This document shows, in pieces, positions 11,333 through 57,106 of a DNA stretch of 64,000 bases. Both the position numbers and the translations under genes were made by a program. How positions within the stretch are numbered: position 1 is the stretch's first letter; each line of letters starts with the position of its first letter. Source of the stretch: Escherichia coli. Lineage in GTDB: Bacteria > Pseudomonadota > Gammaproteobacteria > Enterobacterales > Enterobacteriaceae. The stretch lies in NCBI RefSeq assembly GCF_003334255.1, contig NZ_QOWU01000010.1; one strand, given 5' to 3'. The notes under the pieces are model-generated. The model was given only the letters and a program-made list of their open reading frames with translations, was not told the DNA's origin and did no database searches.

Positions 11333-11604
11333 AAAAGGTCCATAAAATAATTAATACCAAAGGGGTAGGTATTATTAGTGATGATAAAATTTCACCAAAA
11401 GTGAACGCTTGTGTTATTACAATAATAAGAATGCACTGATGGCAAATATTCAGGGATGAAAAACTGCTCTGAAAAGAGTAACGCGCTTTACTATCCCTGA
11501 CAATCACCAACAACATCGAACAAGATAATAAATTCCTGGTTTAATATCCGACAAGTGAAAACATGCACCCGGACGGGCAGCATGTCGCTCCACAAGTGCA
11601 GAGC

Positions 11605-13046: not shown

Positions 13047-14048
13047 TTACTTCGCGGCGACTTTTTCTCGCAGTGCGCGTTTTTCCTCAGCGCTGAGGAA
13101 AGCCATTTCCAGACCATTAATCTGTGCCTGGCGGATTTGCTCGCGGGATAACCCAGCAGCTGGCGCGGCAACGGTATATTCGTGAATGATATCCACTCCC
13201 TGTACGCCGGGATCGTCAGTGTTAATGCTGGCACGAATGCCATGCTCAAGGAACGTTTTCAGCGGATGTGCAGCCAGCTCTGCTACGGTGCTGGTCTGAA
13301 TATTGGAGGTCAGACAGGATTCAATACCAATTTGTTGCTCGGCGAGAAAATCCATCAGCGCCCGATCTTCAATGGCTTTTACGCCATGTCCAATACGCTC
13401 CGCACCCAGTTCACGAATCGCCTGCCAGATGCTTTCCGGCCCGGCAGCTTCGCCTGCATGGACGGTAATATGCCAGCCCGCATCACGCGCGCGGTTGAAG
13501 TGAGAAAGGAACAGACTTCCCGGGAAACCAAGTTCATCACCGGCTAAATCAAGTGCGGTAATCTGGTCACGGTGGGCTAAAAAGGCCTCCAGCTCTTGCT
13601 GACAGGCGGCTTCGCCGAAGGTCCGGCTCATAATGCCGATAAGCTTCGCCTGCACACCAAAGGTGCGGCAACCTTCACGTACGCCATCGATCACCGCTTC
13701 GACAACACCCGCTACAGGCAGCTGATGTGCCATTGCCATGTAGCCTGGTGAAAAACGCAGCTCGACATAGTGCAGGCCGTGACGGGCTGCATCTTCAATG
13801 TTTTCAAATGCCACGCGGCGACAGGCATCAAGAGAGGCGAGAACTTTAACGCCCCAGTCAAGTTTGGTCAGAAAGCTCACCAGATCGGGTTCGTTGGCAA
13901 TGACCTGAACGTGGGGAATCAGTGTTTCCAGGGATTGTGCAGGAAGCGAGATATTATACTGGCGGCCAAGTTCAAGAATGGTCTGGGGACGAATGTTGCC
14001 ATCAAGGTGGCGATGGATATCAGTTAATGGCAGGGTGGTATCAATCAT
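13047..14048 (-). CDS. add: adenosine deaminase
   Basis: 333-aa [24 protein letters not shown]... with metal-binding HxHxD signature. Confidence 0.93.
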
Positions 14049-39917: not shown

Positions 39918-41309
<1,392 letters not shown>

Positions 41310-41335: not shown

Positions 41336-42240
41336 ACTCTTTATTGAGATCGCTTAACAGAACGGCGATGCTTTGACCTCCCGCTGTTTGTTCAAGCGCA
41401 ATTTTGACAATAATTGTCAACGGCACGGAAAGCAGCATACCCACCGGTCCTAACAACCATCCCCAAAAAATCAACGACAAAAATACCACCAATGTGGAAA
41501 GCCCCAGCCCACGCCCCATGATACGCGGCTCCAGAATATTGCCGAAGACCAGATTAATCAGCAGATATCCCGCCAGCACCAGCAACGCTTCGTAGAAGCC
41601 ATTAAACACCAGTACCTGAGCGATAGGGGGGATTGCCGCGAGGACTGAACCAATATTCGGGATGTAATTAAGCGCAAAGGCCAGCAATCCCCAGACAAAA
41701 GCGAAGCGAACATCGAGTGCGGCGAGCATCGCCCAGGCGACCAGGCCGGTGATGATGCTGATGGCTGTTTTCAGCACCAGATAATGAGAAACACTGTCAA
41801 TCGCACGTTGAATCGCCGCCATCCCTTCAACCGGACGCGCCATCATTTGCTGAAATTTTCCGGGCAATTGTGGCACTTCGAGCAGCATAAACAGCACCGT
41901 CAGCAGCAATAAAAATATTGATGACATGGCATTAGATAACTGCGTCAATAAGTTGGTGAGCAACGTCATCGCCGCGTTCGGATCAATATAATGCGCCAGC
42001 TGGTCAACTGAGACGTCAATCCCTACGCGTTGCAACAACGGTTCAAGCGCTTGCAGCGGCGTCATAATAGAGTTGCGATATTGCGGTAACGTCCGCGTCA
42101 ACTCGTTGAGCGCGGAACCCAGATAAGCTAATAGCAACACCATCGCCATCACGATGATGGTCATCAAAATCGACACCGCCAGTACACGCGGCACACGCCA
42201 GCGGACCATGTGTTGCACCAGCGGGTTAAGAATAACAGCA
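41334..42240 (-). pseudogene. tqsA: tqsA (AI-2 exporter) 3' fragment, separated from its 5' end by the island
   Basis: Frame encodes ...[26 protein letters not shown]... to the normal C-terminus (SDLNKE); upstream of codon AVI the frame hits TGA/TAA stops in island DNA. Confidence 0.85.
42232..42240. repeat. left copy of 9-bp direct repeat (att core / target duplication)
   Basis: ATAACAGCA; identical copy at 57098-57106; both lie within tqsA codons 43-46. Confidence 0.7.
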
Positions 42241-42367
42241 TTTTATCATTTAGTGTTTTTTGCTGTTTCATAATGTTTCAGGCTGTGCATTATGTTTTTG
42301 ATTATCAACAGATTTGTGATTTTCCTTGTTCCAGCTTGTTTCACGTTGTAGCCCTTTGTGCAACGAT

Positions 42368-42391
42368 CGGTGTAGTCACTGGTGTAGTCAC
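42368..42391. promoter_or_regulatory. tandem GGTGTAGTCAC repeat near left end (candidate integrase arm-type site)
   Basis: CGGTGTAGTCACTGGTGTAGTCAC; near-identical copy at 57001-57024 near the right end. Confidence 0.4.
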
Positions 42392-42415: not shown

Positions 42416-43645
42416 GTGAGCAGAGCAATGAACAAACTGAGCGATACCTTGCTAAGGAAACTTCATGGTAAGCCAGCGGAGAAAAACACGTTTTATAGTG
42501 ATGGCGGAAACCTGAGCGTGAAATATTTAACATCAGGGAAATTGACCTGGTATTTCACATACAGGGCCGGAACGGGAAGGGAGACACGACCCGAACGCAT
42601 TAAGCTGGGAAGTTATCCTGATCTGAGCCTGAAAGCAGCCAGGGAAAAAGCCGCACAGTGTCGCACATGGCTGGCTGAGGGGAAAAATCCACGTCATGAG
42701 ATGAATTACACCGTACAGGAAGCGTTAAAGCCCGTAACGGTTGGCGATGCGCTCACCTACTGGCTTGAGTATTACGTAAAGGAAAACCGCGTGGATTATA
42801 TCGCCCTGAAAAGGCGACTTAATAATCACGTAATACAGCAGATTGGTGCTATGCCGCTGGATAAATGCGAGCTACGGCACTGGCTGGCCTGTTTTGACCA
42901 GGTGGCAAAGCGAACGCCTGTTACTGCCGGATTCGTGCTACAGGCGTGCAAACAGGCGCTTAAGTTCTGCCGTAGGCGGCGCTATGCAATCAGCAACGTT
43001 CTGGACGATCTGAACGTGGCGGACGTTGGGAAAAAACCGGATATAAGCGAACGTGTCTTAAGTAACAAAGAACTTGGCGAATTATTGCAGGCACTGGACA
43101 AAAAAATATTTTCCCCTTACTACGTCGCGTTAATCCGCCTCCTGATTGTCTTCGGAGCCAGGACGGTAGAACTGAGGCTATCGGAGATCGGGGAGTGGGA
43201 TTTTACGGAAATGCTATGGACCGTTCCGAAGGAGCACAGCAAAACGAAGGTCGCAATATTCCGGCCCATACCGGAAGCGATCCTGCCGTTCGTCACGCAG
43301 CTGGTGGAGCAGAACAGGCACACGGGCTTATTGCTGGGGGAAGTGAAACAGGAGGCCAGCGTATCGCAGTATGGAAGATTAGCGCACAGGAGGCTTAATC
43401 ATCCTCACTGGTCACTGCATGACATCCGGCGCACCTTTACAACCATGCTGAACGATTTAGGCGTTGATCCGCATGTCGTGGAGCAGCTTACAGGTCATCA
43501 GATGCCAGGAATGCAGCGAGTTTATAATCATTCCCGTTATCTGGATGCTAAACGCAATGCGCTGGATATGTGGATGGAGCGGTTAGGGATACTGGCGGGA
43601 ACACATGAAAACGTAACCACGCTACCAGTAGCCAGAAGAAAATAA
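42416..43645 (+). CDS. int: tyrosine integrase, P4-type
   Basis: 409-aa ORF, GTG start after AGAGGGGG; N-terminal arm-binding domain, C-terminal catalytic region with HDIRRT and downstream Tyr (RVYNHSRY). Confidence 0.9.
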   Translation: MSRAMNKLSDTLLRKLHGKPAEKNTFYSDGGNLSVKYLTSGKLTWYFTYRAGTGRETRPERIKLGSYPDLSLKAAREKAAQCRTWLAEGKNPRHEMNYTVQEALKPVTVGDALTYWLEYYVKENRVDYIALKRRLNNHVIQQIGAMPLDKCELRHWLACFDQVAKRTPVTAGFVLQACKQALKFCRRRRYAISNVLDDLNVADVGKKPDISERVLSNKELGELLQALDKKIFSPYYVALIRLLIVFGARTVELRLSEIGEWDFTEMLWTVPKEHSKTKVAIFRPIPEAILPFVTQLVEQNRHTGLLLGEVKQEASVSQYGRLAHRRLNHPHWSLHDIRRTFTTMLNDLGVDPHVVEQLTGHQMPGMQRVYNHSRYLDAKRNALDMWMERLGILAGTHENVTTLPVARRK

Positions 43646-43832
43646 TTTTTTTCGTGTTTTTTCAGTATGCGCATACTGGATATGCGAACAGATACAACAT
43701 GCAACAATGAGCAACAATGCGGAACAACTACGAACAAGAGACGAAAAAGTGTACGGATTTATAAGTAGCTGATTTTTAATGTGTTACTGGTTTTTTATAC
43801 ACTAGCGAATCACTCTTTAAATAGCGAGAAAA

Positions 43833-43859
43833 AAGGCATGAAACAATATTTTATGCCTT
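43833..43859. terminator. stem-loop in int-alpA intergenic region (terminator-like, orientation ambiguous)
   Basis: AAGGCAT-gaaacaatatttt-ATGCCTT; T-run on the minus-strand side (TTTTTTCTCGC), weaker T-rich tract on plus side. Confidence 0.35.
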
Positions 43860-44019
43860 TGTATTAACATGAATTTAAATGATTTTATCCTGATTATTCC
43901 TGTTTCTGTAAACCATACGACCTCAACATTTGCCAACTCTGAATCATCCTGACACAATCAGACACATCCCAACGCAATAGAACACGAAATAACTCTTTAA
44001 GAAACGAAAGGGGGCAATA

Positions 44020-44208
44020 GTGTTAAGCACTGATCGGTTTATACGTGAAAAAGAATGCGAAAAGCTAACAGGCCTTAGCCGCTCATGCCGCTACCGCCTG
44101 GAAAAGGCCGGACAATTCCCATCACGTCGTAAACTTGGCGGTCGTTCCGTTGGCTGGTCTTTATCCGAGGTTCTGGCCTGGAAGGATAGCTGCAAGGCAG
44201 TTCATTAA
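44020..44208 (+). CDS. alpA: AlpA-family phage transcriptional regulator / excision activator
   Basis: 62-aa ORF, GTG start after AAGGGGG; MLSTDRFIREKECEKLTGLSRSCRYRLEKAGQFPSRRKLGGRSVGWSLSEVLAWK matches AlpA/Vis-type HTH proteins. Confidence 0.85.
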   Translation: MLSTDRFIREKECEKLTGLSRSCRYRLEKAGQFPSRRKLGGRSVGWSLSEVLAWKDSCKAVH

Positions 44209-44351
44209 TCACGCTGGCGGCACACAGCCGCCACACATCAATCATCTGAACACAGAGCTATAACCATGAAGATTGAATATACGCCAGAACGTGGGCGGGG
44301 ATTCGTTCGCCCTGGTGAGACTGGAAAACCACAAAATTGGGGTTTTTCAGG

Positions 44352-44477: not shown

Positions 44478-44651
44478 TCAGTCTGGTTCAGTTCGTTGCC
44501 ATACCTGCAATGAGCGCTTTTCCCTGTACTCTTTAAGGAATTGCTCAAGGGCAAAAGCACATGGCGCGAATCTTTCTGATTCATGCTCTATCTTTCTGCG
44601 CCGTCTTTTCCGTGCCGGTGATAATGTTTTGGTCAATTCTTTATCGGTCAT
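44478..44651 (-). CDS. hypothetical small basic protein (57 aa)
   Basis: MTDKELTKTLSPARKRRRRKIEHESERF...; ATG preceded by AGGA; downstream of orf101 on same strand, before the minus-strand terminator. Confidence 0.3.
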   Translation of the reverse strand: MTDKELTKTLSPARKRRRRKIEHESERFAPCAFALEQFLKEYREKRSLQVWQRTEPD

Positions 44652-44708
44652 TGTGTTGTCCTGCATAGCAATGCGCCGTAATACCTCACACCACGGCGCT
44701 GATAGTGA

Positions 44709-45014
44709 TTATTCTGATTCTTTGGCCTTGCGGCGCTGTAGTTCTTCACGAGCGATGGCGATAAGTTGCCCGAGTTCTTCCGTAGCTTTAATACCAATTT
44801 TTTCCACTTGCGCCAATGCATCGAGAGAAGAAATCAGAGGATTTTCACTGCTTCCTTCTGCCTGGCGGCGGGCGATCTCCCCGCGCATGGCGGTTACTAT
44901 GAATCCGGCGTTGCTTTCGCCGTCCAGTTTTACGGATTCCATGCCATCAAAAGCATCATGTGGGATACGAATTGAAATCTGTTTTGATTTGTCGTTGATA
45001 GTGTTTTTTGCCAT
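44709..45014 (-). CDS. hypothetical protein (101 aa), candidate island regulator
   Basis: MAKNTINDKSKQISIRIPHDAFDG...; ATG preceded by AGGAGA; reads away from paired operator-like inverted repeats. Confidence 0.55.
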   Translation of the reverse strand: MAKNTINDKSKQISIRIPHDAFDGMESVKLDGESNAGFIVTAMRGEIARRQAEGSSENPLISSLDALAQVEKIGIKATEELGQLIAIAREELQRRKAKESE

Positions 45015-45036
45015 GTGCATTCTCCTAAACAAAAGA

Positions 45037-45112
45037 TGTGATTCAGTATACACAAAAAAGAATCACAAAAAACACTTGACCTGTGATTCAGTTGAATTTA
45101 ATTTAAATCACA
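45037..45112. promoter_or_regulatory. divergent promoter region with two operator-like inverted repeats
   Basis: TGTGATTC-N15-GAATCACA (45037-45067) and TGTGATTC-N16-AATCACA (45082-45112); TTGACC -35-like hexamer at 45076-45081. Confidence 0.55.
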
Positions 45113-45718: not shown

Positions 45719-46018
45719 ATGAGAACGTATTTATCTGGCTTTACTGCCAGCGGTTATGCACACCCCAAAATTATCCCCGGCGCTATTTATCTGGATAAGA
45801 ACGGTAACAGAGTAACGGTAAAAGAACTGATGTTTGACCGTGTGTATTTTATTCGTGATGGCTATTCATTTCATAGTTCGCTGAACGTGGAGATCTTTAT
45901 TAGCAGATTCCGGCGGGAAATCCCGCTTTCCAGAAATAACCATGTGTCATGTATGGATGTTGATAAAAAACTACAGGAACTGAAAAACATGATTGCCGCG
46001 TGGAGAGAGCAGAAATGA
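45719..46018 (+). CDS. hypothetical protein (99 aa)
   Basis: MRTYLSGFTASGYAHPKIIPGAIYLDKNGNRVTVKELMFDRVYFIRDGYSF...; stop overlaps primase start (ATGA). Confidence 0.5.
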   Translation: MRTYLSGFTASGYAHPKIIPGAIYLDKNGNRVTVKELMFDRVYFIRDGYSFHSSLNVEIFISRFRREIPLSRNNHVSCMDVDKKLQELKNMIAAWREQK

Positions 46019-47832
46019 AAAAAGCGCCAAATTTAAAACACCAGCCGCGTGACAAAATGACGGAAGTCATCATTTTTGCGGGTAGTGATGCGTGGGCACA
46101 TGCGAAGCAGTGGCAGGAACAGGACGGGCGACTGGCTGGCGATAACGTGCCACCTGTCTGGCTTGGAGAGCAACAACTTGCCGAACTGGACAACCTGCAA
46201 ATCGTACCGGACGGACGCTATCGCGTGCGTCTCTACCAGGCGGGGTTATTGCGTCCGGGGCTTGTTAATACCATCGGGCAGAAACTGGCAGCGGCAGGTG
46301 TCAGGGATGCTGATTATTACCCTGAAGGAATGCACAGCCAGAAACGGGAGAACTGGCGCGAATATCTGGAACGTGAGCGGGGAGAGCTGGCGGAAAAGAA
46401 AAAGGTAGTTGAACTGCCTGTAAAGAAAAAAGAGCGGGTAAAAGACGATAACGCTTCATCACTGGCGCTTAACCAGATGGGAGCAAGTCAACGCGGCGAA
46501 GTTCTCCTGGCACATTATGGCGGTGAACTGGCGATTCATGCTGACTCTGACACTGTTCACTATTACAACGGCGTTGTATGGGAGCCAGTACAGGATAAAG
46601 AATTACAGCGAGCTATGGCGCAGATTTTCATTGATGCGGAGATCAGCTATTCGCAGAACGCCATTAAATCGGCGGTCGATACCATGAAGTTAAGTTTGCC
46701 TGTAATGGGGAATACAGCCCGTAACCTGATTGGATTCAGTAACGGTGTTTTTGATACCCGGACAGGCGATTTTCGGGAGCATAACAAAAACGACTGGTTG
46801 TTAATTGCCAGTGAATTACCTTTCAGCCCACCAGCAGAGGGGGAAACGCTGGCAACACATGCGCCGAATTTCTGGAAGTGGTTACGCCGTTCGGTGGCTG
46901 AGAATGACCGCAAGGCGGATCGCGTACTGGCTGCATTATTCATGGTGCTGGCGAACCGGTACGACTGGCAGTTATTCATTGAGGTAACAGGTCCAGGGGG
47001 AAGTGGTAAAAGCGTGATGGCGGAGATTTGCACCATGCTGGCGGGTAAGGCCAACACGGTATCGGCAAGCATGAAGGCGCTGGAAGATGCCAGGGAACGC
47101 GCGTTAGTGGTTGGCTTTTCGCTGATTATCATGCCGGATATGACCCGTTACGCTGGTGATGGCGCAGGAATTAAGGCCATTACAGGCGGTGACAAGGTGG
47201 CAATCGACCCGAAGCATAAAGCCCCCTACTCAACACGCATTCAGGCGGTAGTGTTGGCGGTGAACAATAACGCCATGTCATTCAGTGACCGCAGCGGGGG
47301 GATTTCACGTCGTCGGGTGATATTCAATTTTTCGGAGGTTGTACCGGAAAACGAACGCGACCCCATGCTGGCAGAAAAAATAGAAGGAGAGCTGGCGGTT
47401 GTGATTCGCCACCTGCTTACTCGTTTTTCTGACCAGGACGCAGCTAAACGCCTGCTGTATGAGCAGCAGAAATCAGAAGAAGCTCTGGTGATAAAACGCG
47501 AGGGCGATTCGCTGGTGGACTTCTGCGGCTATCTCATGTCGTCGGTAATGTGTGATGGTCTGTTAGTGGGTAATGCCGAAATTATTCCGTTCAGTCCGCG
47601 CAGGTATCTTTATCACGCCTATCTGGCATATATGAGGGCACACGGATTCGGTAAACCTGTAACACTGACGCGCTTCGGTAAAGATATGCCGGGGGCAATG
47701 GCGGAATATGGCAGGGAGTATATGAAACGGAAAACGAAGCACGGTTTGCGTTCAAACGTGACACTGACGGAGGAATCAGAAGACTGGATGCCATCATGTG
47801 TATCGGTCACTAATGACGATAGCAAAAATTAA
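46015..47832 (+). CDS. P4 alpha-like replication protein (primase/NTPase, P-loop)
   Basis: 605-aa ORF with Walker A GPGGSGKS and Walker B-like region; followed immediately by TGTTCACC iteron cluster. Confidence 0.8.
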   Translation: MKKAPNLKHQPRDKMTEVIIFAGSDAWAHAKQWQEQDGRLAGDNVPPVWLGEQQLAELDNLQIVPDGRYRVRLYQAGLLRPGLVNTIGQKLAAAGVRDADYYPEGMHSQKRENWREYLERERGELAEKKKVVELPVKKKERVKDDNASSLALNQMGASQRGEVLLAHYGGELAIHADSDTVHYYNGVVWEPVQDKELQRAMAQIFIDAEISYSQNAIKSAVDTMKLSLPVMGNTARNLIGFSNGVFDTRTGDFREHNKNDWLLIASELPFSPPAEGETLATHAPNFWKWLRRSVAENDRKADRVLAALFMVLANRYDWQLFIEVTGPGGSGKSVMAEICTMLAGKANTVSASMKALEDARERALVVGFSLIIMPDMTRYAGDGAGIKAITGGDKVAIDPKHKAPYSTRIQAVVLAVNNNAMSFSDRSGGISRRRVIFNFSEVVPENERDPMLAEKIEGELAVVIRHLLTRFSDQDAAKRLLYEQQKSEEALVIKREGDSLVDFCGYLMSSVMCDGLLVGNAEIIPFSPRRYLYHAYLAYMRAHGFGKPVTLTRFGKDMPGAMAEYGREYMKRKTKHGLRSNVTLTEESEDWMPSCVSVTNDDSKN

Positions 47833-49414: not shown

Positions 49415-49436
49415 AGCCGGAGCAATCCGGCTTTTT
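49415..49436 (+). terminator. rho-independent terminator (near-duplicate of 49061-49084)
   Basis: AGCCGGAG-caa-TCCGGCT hairpin followed by T5. Confidence 0.65.
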
Positions 49437-49696
49437 GTCATTTTTTGTAAATTATTTGTTCGTGGTTGTTCCACGTTGTTCACTGACAGGATCGGCATAT
49501 TTTACCCGAACTGAATCATGAGTATTCTCGCCCGTGGTGCCAGGACGCTGGGGCCACTTTCCCGCCTGTTAATGTGCTCGCCAATATTCATTACCAGGCG
49601 GGAAAACGATCGGTGCGATTGCTGATTTCCTTATGAAAAACGGTTGAGTTTTTGCCGCGTCCTGGAGTTCCTTACTTAACCCCAGGACTTTTTTTT

Positions 49697-56332: not shown

Positions 56333-56419
56333 CTGGTTGATATTCCCGACGGACCAAAAATGGGTGGCTACATCCCTCGCTTCTGAGGACTGTTAACAAG
56401 CTGCCTGAAAGACAGTCAC

Positions 56420-56890
56420 AAACTACGAAATTTTCGCAGTTTAATTAATGATCAGCTTAATCGCTAACCCGCTGATATTTTCGGAAACCTCAATTTGAGG
56501 AAGTCGGCGCGGTAACTCGCTGAACTTTAAGCAAAGTGCAAAATTGCGCTTGCTGAATAATCATTATGATTACGCAGATGATTAAGGAATGACCGAAGGC
56601 GGAAATTCGCCTGTGGTTAATGGGGGAGTTGCAGATCTGCAACTCGACCATGAAACTACGGAAACTACCCGTAGTTTGGGTAGTAAGAGTAACACCCAGA
56701 TTTTGGGTCTTACTCGTGATACCCAAATTTGGGGTATCAGTGGCAACCATAACGACTTTCGTTACGGTTGATGCTTTTACCCCATTGGGGGAAAGGTATT
56801 ACGATAATCATAACACCTACCGAACAGGTAAAGCCCACCAGCCTGATTAACGTTTAACCGGAAAAAAATTCCGGTAGGTGGGGATCCCCA
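56420..56890. other. palindrome-dense non-coding region at island right end
   Basis: Ten dyad-symmetric elements including perfect 20-bp palindrome GAGTTGCAGATCTGCAACTC (56626-56645) and three TACCC..GGGTA-type dyads about 25 bp apart; overlapping small ORFs lack RBS. Confidence 0.6.
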
Positions 56891-57000
56891 TATCGACATT
56901 AACGCCCCTCATGAATTGGTGCGCTTCCCCCTGGAAAGATGATCCGCCTGTATATTTCTTGTGTCTATTTGTTCCACGTTGTTTCATACAGTGCACCGAA

Positions 57001-57024
57001 CGGTGTAGTCACTGGTGTAGTCAT
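57001..57024. promoter_or_regulatory. tandem GGTGTAGTCA repeat near right end (candidate integrase arm-type site)
   Basis: CGGTGTAGTCACTGGTGTAGTCAT, counterpart of 42368-42391. Confidence 0.4.
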
Positions 57025-57097: not shown

Positions 57098-57106
57098 ATA
57101 ACAGCA
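57098..57106. repeat. right copy of 9-bp direct repeat (att core)
   Basis: ATAACAGCA, identical to 42232-42240. Confidence 0.7.

Follow-up and report, generated by a model that had tools for sequence, protein, structure and literature searches.

Phased direct repeats, a hairpin and a candidate promoter in the int–alpA spacer of an Escherichia coli phage-inducible chromosomal island

We analysed 64,000 nucleotides of Escherichia coli DNA (assembly GCF_003334255.1, contig NZ_QOWU01000010.1; hereafter the window). The window carries a 14.9-kb capsid-forming phage-inducible chromosomal island (PICI) of the EcCIEDL933/Sakai Sp7 type, inserted in tqsA. Our subject is the 374-bp spacer (43646–44019) between the integrase gene of the island, int, and its neighbour alpA. 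We read this spacer as the regulatory region of alpA, with repeats that would be bound by AlpA, a hairpin that would act as a terminator and a predicted promoter, and we give this model, taken as a whole, a little better than an even chance. A previous sequence-only reading had proposed control sites for alpA and int expression here. The spacer does look like a control region of alpA, and its repeats do look like protein-binding sites; the repeats are not a local feature, however, but part of phased arrays distributed over the island. The control region is real and fairly ordinary, and it belongs to a known type of element. What is new is the description of the repeats as an island-wide operator set in the style of recombination-directionality factors (RDFs), the assignment of the hairpin to a strand, and the placement of a promoter and of a stem that faces the Shine–Dalgarno (SD) sequence of alpA. 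EcCIEDL933 is the prototype capsid-forming PICI (bioRxiv 10.1101/2022.09.08.507074). No cis elements of the int–alpA region are defined in PMC6092414, PMC11773190 or bioRxiv 10.1101/2022.09.08.507074, and there is no map of AlpA DNA targets in the PICI literature cited here.

The repeats that had been noticed earlier are present: GCAACAATG occurs twice, at 43701–43709 and 43711–43719. The CAACAATG repeats are better described as five ACAA cores with an exact 10-bp spacing (43694, 43704, 43714, 43724 and 43734). They make up the distal array, five 10-bp units on the plus strand (43692–43741), recognized by pattern search and by conservation among 16 alleles. When the window was searched for ACAA-N6-ACAA-N6-ACAA, eight matches were found, compared to 0.00 in 100 shuffles, and seven of the eight were inside the island, forming four arrays. 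A looser phased pattern gave 10 matches where 2.2 were expected. The left att-arm array (42326–42359, minus strand) lies upstream of int and has four ACAA cores in the 10-bp phase. The right att-arm array (56959–56982, minus strand) has three cores, and the same array is found at the right end of EcCICFT073. The late array (49435–49479, minus strand) places five cores before the major head gene, whose product was identified through PHROGs. Arrays carry 3 to 6 cores each. Outside the island, one three-core phased ACAA run was seen at 11500–11523, in the 49 kb of flanking chromosome; it is probably a chance match.

For comparison we used 15 other E. coli PICI loci (at tqsA, roxA, allE and other sites), EcCICFT073 and capsid-forming PICIs from IMG/VR. 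Most matches in an exact 14-mer search of IMG/VR were due to chance, and six were real capsid-forming PICIs. The spacer alignment comprised 16 alleles. The spacer array was present in 15 of 15 of the other E. coli loci, in EcCICFT073 and in the IMG/VR islands. The left-arm array was likewise kept at the same position in all 15 (four cores in 14 of them, three in L005), and it was found in EcCICFT073 and the IMG/VR islands too. The late array was essentially identical, with at most one substitution, in Sakai Sp7 and the IMG/VR islands. These array positions hold whatever the integration site. Over the 16 spacer alleles, the mean identity of the core columns was 0.99 and that of the linker columns 0.76. 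Conservation with a 10-bp period suggests that the boxes are under selection.

The same detector found no phased array in CP4-57 of K-12, the founding AlpA element; hence the arrays are not universal in the AlpA family. A search for AlpA in other species gave only two distant loci, neither with comparable arrays. We also considered whether the arrays might be replication iterons of a PICI origin. This was rejected, as none of them is downstream of the primase gene (46000–47832), where the origin is located (PMC6092414). In EcCICFT073, four phased TACC repeats (L139 16567–16600) were seen just after the primase gene, at the reported position of the PICI origin; these are distinct from the ACAA arrays.

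Further downstream in the spacer, repeat search and folding revealed a hairpin (43829–43865, plus strand) that consists of an A6 run, the stem–loop GGCATGAAA / loop CAATA / TTTTATGCC, and then TTTGTATT. Its arms are 43832–43843 and 43849–43860, with the GC core GGCATGAAA/TTTTATGCC and a 5-nt loop. The sequence-only reading had the hairpin in the right place and had put its U-run on the minus strand. The A6 run (43829–43834) does give U6 on that strand, but the plus strand has a T-rich tail as well, TTTGTATT (43858–43865). The plus-strand hairpin folded with -12.9 kcal/mol (z = -4.89), and none of 200 shuffles was as stable; for the minus strand, z was -2.81. The comparison was extended to ten distinct alleles, over which the energy ranged from -10.5 to -15.0 kcal/mol on the plus strand and from -8.0 to -15.1 kcal/mol on the minus strand. 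All 90 of the 90 stem cells in these alleles pair on the plus strand (82 Watson–Crick, 8 G·U), and the same eight are A·C on the minus strand. One stem position runs through A-T, G·T and G-C across alleles, and three other positions carry G·T. The G·U pairs on one strand against A·C on the other, together with the energies and z-scores, favour a function in the rightward RNA. Judged in this way, the hairpin is most likely a rightward, possibly bidirectional, terminator that would insulate alpA from int, rather than chiefly an antisense terminator. As expression of AlpA is by itself enough to start the cycle of the island (PMC6092414), the obvious role of the hairpin would be to end int transcripts and keep them out of alpA.

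Some observations weigh against a purely rightward terminator. On neither strand did a consensus scanner report a terminator at the hairpin; in our reading, the T tail is consumed when the flanking A/T pairs are added to the stem. In addition, alleles L013 and L016 have no plus-strand U tract after the hairpin, while the A6 run occurs in all ten. Since A6 is found in every allele, the U tract is lost in two and the scanner did not call the site, a bidirectional terminator is plausible.

It had also been suggested that an antisense or small transcript might end at the hairpin. This suggestion was not supported as it stood: pairing is kept only in the plus-strand RNA, and in the interval from the hairpin to alpA, reading of the alignment gave no leftward promoter that was conserved. 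We consider it unlikely that the hairpin serves mainly to terminate such a minus-strand transcript, starting between the hairpin and alpA. The eight stem cells that are G·U on the plus strand and A·C on the minus strand fall at four positions, and roughly half of the alleles have a minus-strand energy of only -8.0 to -9.5 kcal/mol, with the weaker z-score given above for this strand; alleles with a fully Watson–Crick stem, on the other hand, form a minus-strand hairpin as stable as the plus-strand one. The invariant A6 run (U6 on the minus strand) and the two alleles without a plus-strand U tract also speak for a minus-strand transcript. A weak TTTACA-N19-TAAAAT is readable on the minus strand, but its 19-bp spacer and its lack of conservation in distant alleles make it a poor promoter candidate. 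The leftward operon downstream of alpA, moreover, has its own terminator (44382–44355). This is a strong minus-strand terminator, read from the sequence as a stem followed by U7, and it ends a leftward gene pair (44481–45053) that converges on alpA. A 46-aa minus-strand open reading frame (ORF; 43817–43957) was rejected as coding because a 10-bp indel between alleles frameshifts it, which also counts against an antisense transcript. A 9-codon ORF across the hairpin was rejected too, its ATG being lost in GGCATAAAA alleles. The RNA structure of the spacer as a whole was unremarkable (z = -0.22).

A promoter scanner placed a candidate alpA promoter about 100 bp downstream of the hairpin (43930–43958, plus strand), with the -35 element TTGCCA (43930–43935), a 17-bp spacer and the -10 element CACAAT. 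In all alleles the -35 element is unchanged and (C/A)ACAAT stands at the fixed distance of 17 bp, whereas identity within the 17-bp spacer is 63%. Allele comparison further revealed a proximal array of four degenerate 10-bp units, GACACAATCA, GACACATCCC, AACGCAATAG and AACACGAAAT, which runs from the alpA -10 element into the leader (43951–43990, plus strand). Alleles vary here by whole 10-bp units, having 2, 3, 4 or 5 of them, and the unit consensus is about GACACAATNN. In the minimum free energy and centroid folds, the leader formed an anti-SD stem (43993–44014, plus strand) in which CTCTTT (43993–43998) pairs with AAAGGG (44007–44012) of the alpA ribosome-binding site. In the allele L006, CTCCA/TGGAG replaces both sides of this stem, and pairing is kept. 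The folds point to a stem that partly masks the ribosome-binding site and would damp translation of alpA. A literature search for Sakai/EDL933 transcript data on this locus gave nothing usable.

The alpA gene (44020–44208, plus strand) has a GTG start and encodes a protein of 62 aa that matches the Pfam family PF05930 (E = 5.6e-18). This AlpA is 95% identical to the AlpA of EcCICFT073, the experimentally tested activator. It also matches HTH_17, with the helix-turn-helix (HTH) beginning at residue 5. When AlpA was used in a PDB sequence search, it matched 8c3t, which belongs to the AlpA family and was the one chain named AlpA at E up to 10. A model of PICMI AlpA resembles TorI and pSAM2 Xis (PMC10803314). 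From these matches, the AlpA of the window would be a winged-helix protein of the general RDF kind. In EcCICFT073, alpA is needed for induction, and over-expressed AlpA suffices to bring about excision and replication. AlpA acts as an activator at its own promoter region, PalpA, which also responds to the helper phage, and does not activate Pint (PMC6092414). Helper phages switch alpA on independently of SOS, through an unidentified factor (PMC6092414; for EcCIMP1, PMC11773190).

The binding sites of RDFs are direct repeats one helical turn apart, bound head to tail, and at least three adjacent sites are needed; 186 Apl, P2 Cox and P4 Vis bind such arrays at att and also at promoters away from att (PMC7498355). 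RdfS likewise binds attP and its own promoter (PMC11963761). In the island we found 10-bp direct repeats, at least three sites per array, copies of the array in the att arms and a gene for a small HTH protein. By analogy, the phased arrays appear to bear the signature of operators for a winged-helix RDF such as 186 Apl, P2 Cox or lambda Xis. Accessory genes vary among the islands with these arrays; at the left end, int and alpA are common to them.

To choose between these two proteins, a second motif of the att arms has to be considered. It is a doublet of the unit TGTAGTCA, of which the window has only two copies, one in each att arm. The first, TGTAGTCACTGGTGTAGTCA, is at 42371–42390 (plus strand), about +133 from the core, and the second is at 57004–57023 (plus strand), about -80 to -99 from the right core. 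Each att-arm ACAA array adjoins a doublet, just upstream of it. The doublet was also found in EcCICFT073 and in the divergent PICIs L140/L141. In helper-embedded PICIs (HE-PICIs), the attP centre has a co-oriented doublet on each side, at distances of about 81 bp (upstream) and 132 bp (downstream), and this motif has tentatively been given to the arm domains of Int; the doubled attP motif was reported as unique to HE-PICIs (PMC10111431). The likeness suggests that the TGTAGTCA doublets are Int arm-type sites.

It might then be argued that the phased ACAA boxes are themselves integrase arm-type sites, and not AlpA sites, as two of the arrays lie inside the att arms and Int is the other protein common to all array-bearing islands. 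Lambda arm-type sites, too, can be tandem direct repeats. Nevertheless, we regard this as quite unlikely: arrays also occur far from att, at the alpA promoter and ahead of the packaging operon, and it is the doublet that is confined to the att arms and has the geometry of the motif provisionally assigned to the Int arm domains (PMC10111431). Because arrays before the packaging operon are ill-suited to Int, for which the doublet is the better candidate, we infer that AlpA is the binder of the arrays; provided that some island protein does bind them, AlpA is rather probably that protein.

Very unlikely, in our estimate, is that a host response regulator (ArcA-, PhoP- or OmpR-like) binds the arrays, or that they are slippage repeats with no binding function. 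It is true that several response regulators bind direct repeats spaced by 10–11 bp that contain TGTT, and that slippage can multiply 10-bp units, of which the leader array is an example. Arrays of at least three cores, however, cluster in the island, the 49 kb of flanking chromosome having a single, probably chance, match; their cores are conserved far above the linkers; and their positions beside the Int doublets are fixed in islands at different chromosomal sites.

We found it highly improbable that AlpA is a Q-like antiterminator as in Pseudomonas, loading at the array and letting polymerase read through the hairpin into alpA. In favour of this, the AlpA of P. aeruginosa, bound to an element within a promoter, lets transcription pass intrinsic terminators further downstream (PMC7969949), and the spacer has its hairpin in the interval from the distal array to alpA. 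Against it, no convincing promoter could be read between array and hairpin (the candidate -10 elements are without the key A2 or T6), the PDB search gave only 8c3t, and the 62-aa AlpA has no segment N-terminal to its HTH; in the Pseudomonas protein, the N-terminal segment forms a ring in the RNA exit channel (PMC9371919). A Pseudomonas-type antitermination module was rejected on these grounds, namely the absence of a sequence match and of the N-terminal segment, and a hairpin upstream of the predicted promoter.

Several points weigh against AlpA as the binder and activator at the arrays. The available AlpA alleles are at least 90% identical, and the distant loci were uninformative for a check of covariation between AlpA and the boxes. 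Such covariation is not shown by the islands L140/L141, whose AlpA is 62% identical: they keep the att-arm arrays, with TTGT boxes at attL, and their spacer is different. From the last box of the distal array down to the alpA -35 element, the distance is 196 bp in the close clade and 197–202 bp in distant alleles; over such a distance, direct activation would require looping. This array is also inverted relative to the other three ACAA arrays. The position of the proximal array, over the -10 element and the leader, suggests repression rather than the reported autoactivation. Finally, a search of EcCICFT073 gave no ACAA array before the late genes.

In the window itself, the last box of the late array, TTGTTC, may serve as the -35 element of TTGTTC-N16-TATTTT upstream of the head gene, a candidate for an AlpA-dependent late promoter. 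An intrinsic terminator, read from the sequence as GCCGGA-GCAA-TCCGGC then T5, is located ahead of this array (49416–49436, plus strand).

With AlpA as the preferred binder, the following mechanism may be proposed. The CAACAATG repeats would act as an operator array in which five GAACAA-type boxes follow each other at intervals of one helical turn; AlpA would bind to it cooperatively and head to tail, bending the DNA as other RDFs do. A single AlpA protein could thus drive excision from the att arms, feed back on alpA and turn on the packaging operon. The hairpin would end int transcripts and block constitutive int transcription from entering alpA. The latter gene would be transcribed from TTGCCA-N17-NACAAT, its ribosome-binding site being partly masked by the anti-SD stem. 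In Gram-negative PICIs, AlpA acts as the master switch, and the elements suggest a way for this single protein of 62 aa to link excision with its own activation and with the expression of capsid genes. The GAACAA box at 10-bp phase, the putative terminator, the candidate promoter and the anti-SD stem offer concrete targets for mutagenesis and footprinting. It is a long shot that the GAACAA arrays are a shared operator code, read both by AlpA and by an excisionase-type protein of the helper phage. If so, helper induction of alpA would be like the switching on of the satellite P4 by P2 Cox, and allele-specific elements of the spacer, such as the palindrome described below, would set which helpers induce which island.

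The perfect 16-bp palindrome described by the sequence-only reading was confirmed: CAGTATGCGCATACTG lies at 43663–43678, 17 nt past the int stop codon. It is clade-specific, being present in 12 of the 16 alleles. A 16-bp palindrome occurred in the shuffled spacer with P about 0.011, and the whole window has four against 0.9 expected, a mild excess. Two further perfect 16-bp palindromes, at 13084 and 16977, stand outside the island and are probably due to chance. The proposal that the palindrome is a control site could not be upheld as a general one: EcCICFT073-type alleles have extra ACAA units in its place, and single substitutions in Sakai and L006 break its symmetry and are not compensated. 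It was rejected as an RNA hairpin (z = -1.39), and also as a degenerate inverted Int doublet, with which it shares only the bases AGT. Hence, the palindrome is specific to one group of alleles; by its distribution it would stand outside the general mechanism. EcCIEDL933- and EcCICFT073-type islands have different helper phages despite nearly identical AlpA. As the palindrome differs between these spacer types with different helpers, it is a candidate determinant of helper specificity, though this is speculation.

Other blocks of the spacer are conserved. Two phased T tracts, T7-CGTG-T6, follow right after the int stop codon (43646–43662, plus strand). Their mean column identity over the 16 alleles was 0.96, the highest of the multi-base stretches of the spacer, exceeded by the -35 hexamer only. 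The block ACTCTTTAA (43812–43820, plus strand; repeat family D1) lies in a small palindrome or stem of most alleles (CTCTTTAAAGAG or CGCTTTAAAGCG), where a T-to-G change is matched by an A-to-C change among alleles. The 9-mer ACTCTTTAA occurs twice, 180 bp apart (in the regions 43808–43827 and 43988–44007), and both copies are conserved. Another conserved block, TACTGGTTTTTTATACAC at 43785–43802, has the form TACTGG-N8-TACAC with ACTG and TACA invariant, and resembles a LexA box. LexA needs CAG where this block has CAC or CAT. For this reason, and since the induction of alpA is SOS-independent (PMC6092414), a LexA box was rejected; another regulator may bind the block.

The limits of the island were located as follows. 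By the ORF list and the RefSeq annotation of an identical region, a tqsA gene without its 5′ end follows pntB (39921–41309), and the missing 5′ end is at about 57240–57100 on the minus strand. The 9-mer ATAACAGCA occurs inside tqsA as the left crossover block, or attL core (42232–42240), and identically as the right crossover block, or attR core (57098–57106). Joining the two flanks at ATAACAGCA restored the tqsA reading frame, and the rebuilt junction was matched in more than 5000 E. coli genomes at 95% identity or more. The presence of ATAACAGCA at both junctions and the frequency of the rebuilt junction therefore establish a 14.9-kb insertion in tqsA. When the 285-bp junction query was aligned with the best-matching genomes that have no island, it fell into two pieces spread over 493 bp; this difference implies an insertion of about 200 bp at the tqsA site of those genomes, perhaps an island remnant.

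The island begins with int, which encodes a tyrosine recombinase of 409 aa (42416–43645, plus strand, stop codon 43643–43645; ORF list and RefSeq annotation of the identical region). It is followed by alpA, a short leftward gene pair, Icd-like and DUF4222 genes, primase, SSB and PerC-like genes, and the capsid and packaging genes. ORFs and PHROGs matches identified major head, protease, portal, connector and terminase genes in the packaging operon. This gene content is that of a capsid-forming PICI, with an int–alpA–primase core, head, protease, portal and terminase genes of its own, a length of about 15 kb and a specific att site. Between the int–alpA spacer and its equivalent in prophage Sp7 of O157:H7 Sakai, identity is about 90%; we take Sp7 to be the counterpart of EcCIEDL933. 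The int–alpA region was found in about 880 of 5426 complete E. coli genomes, O157:H7 among them. There are no tRNA genes in the window. Rfam 15 gave no match in the window at the gathering score, and a permissive scan of the spacer gave only chance-level matches with E above 2. Just past the alpA stop codon (44216–44232), a GC-rich hairpin GGCGGC-ACACA-GCCGCC without a U run was observed. The non-coding right end of the island (56340–56900) has many palindromes and inverted repeats, for example AGTTGCAGATCTGCAACT around 56628, GAAACTACGGAAACTACCCGTAGTTT and ACCCAGATTTTGGGT/ACCCAAATTTGGGGT; it may contain a cos/pac site or another cis site.

The elements of the spacer may be compared with known systems. 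Like Rho-independent terminators, including bidirectional ones, the hairpin has a GC-cored 9-bp stem, a 5-nt loop, an upstream A run and a downstream T-rich run; it differs in that its plus-strand U tract is interrupted (UUUGUAUU) and gone in two alleles. The doublets share their geometry (here about -80 to -99 and +133) with the doubled attP motif of HE-PICIs, whereas their sequence is TGTAGTCA and not TGTATTGC, and each is accompanied by a phased ACAA array. With the P. aeruginosa AlpA system there is a likeness of protein name, the protein there also being a small DNA-binding protein that activates lysis or late-type genes (PMC7969949, PMC9371919). In that system, however, the protein binds an element placed between -35 and -10, and the terminator follows the promoter, whereas the hairpin described here precedes the predicted promoter.

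The int–alpA regions of EcCICFT073 and EcCIEDL933 have the same gene order, an AlpA that is 95% identical (in EcCICFT073) and a homologous spacer with array, hairpin and -35 element. In contrast to EcCICFT073, the allele of the window has the palindrome, and the island is in tqsA, not beside roxA. The arrays resemble those of 186 Apl, P2 Cox and P4 Vis, which are likewise direct repeats at helical-turn spacing, with three to seven sites, found at att and at promoters elsewhere. These are read by small HTH/winged-helix proteins, which are both excision factors and transcription regulators. The present case differs in that the candidate binder is an AlpA-family (PF05930) protein of a PICI, with five arrays, one of them before the capsid and packaging operon, and in that Apl and Cox are mainly repressors, while activation is what has been reported for AlpA.

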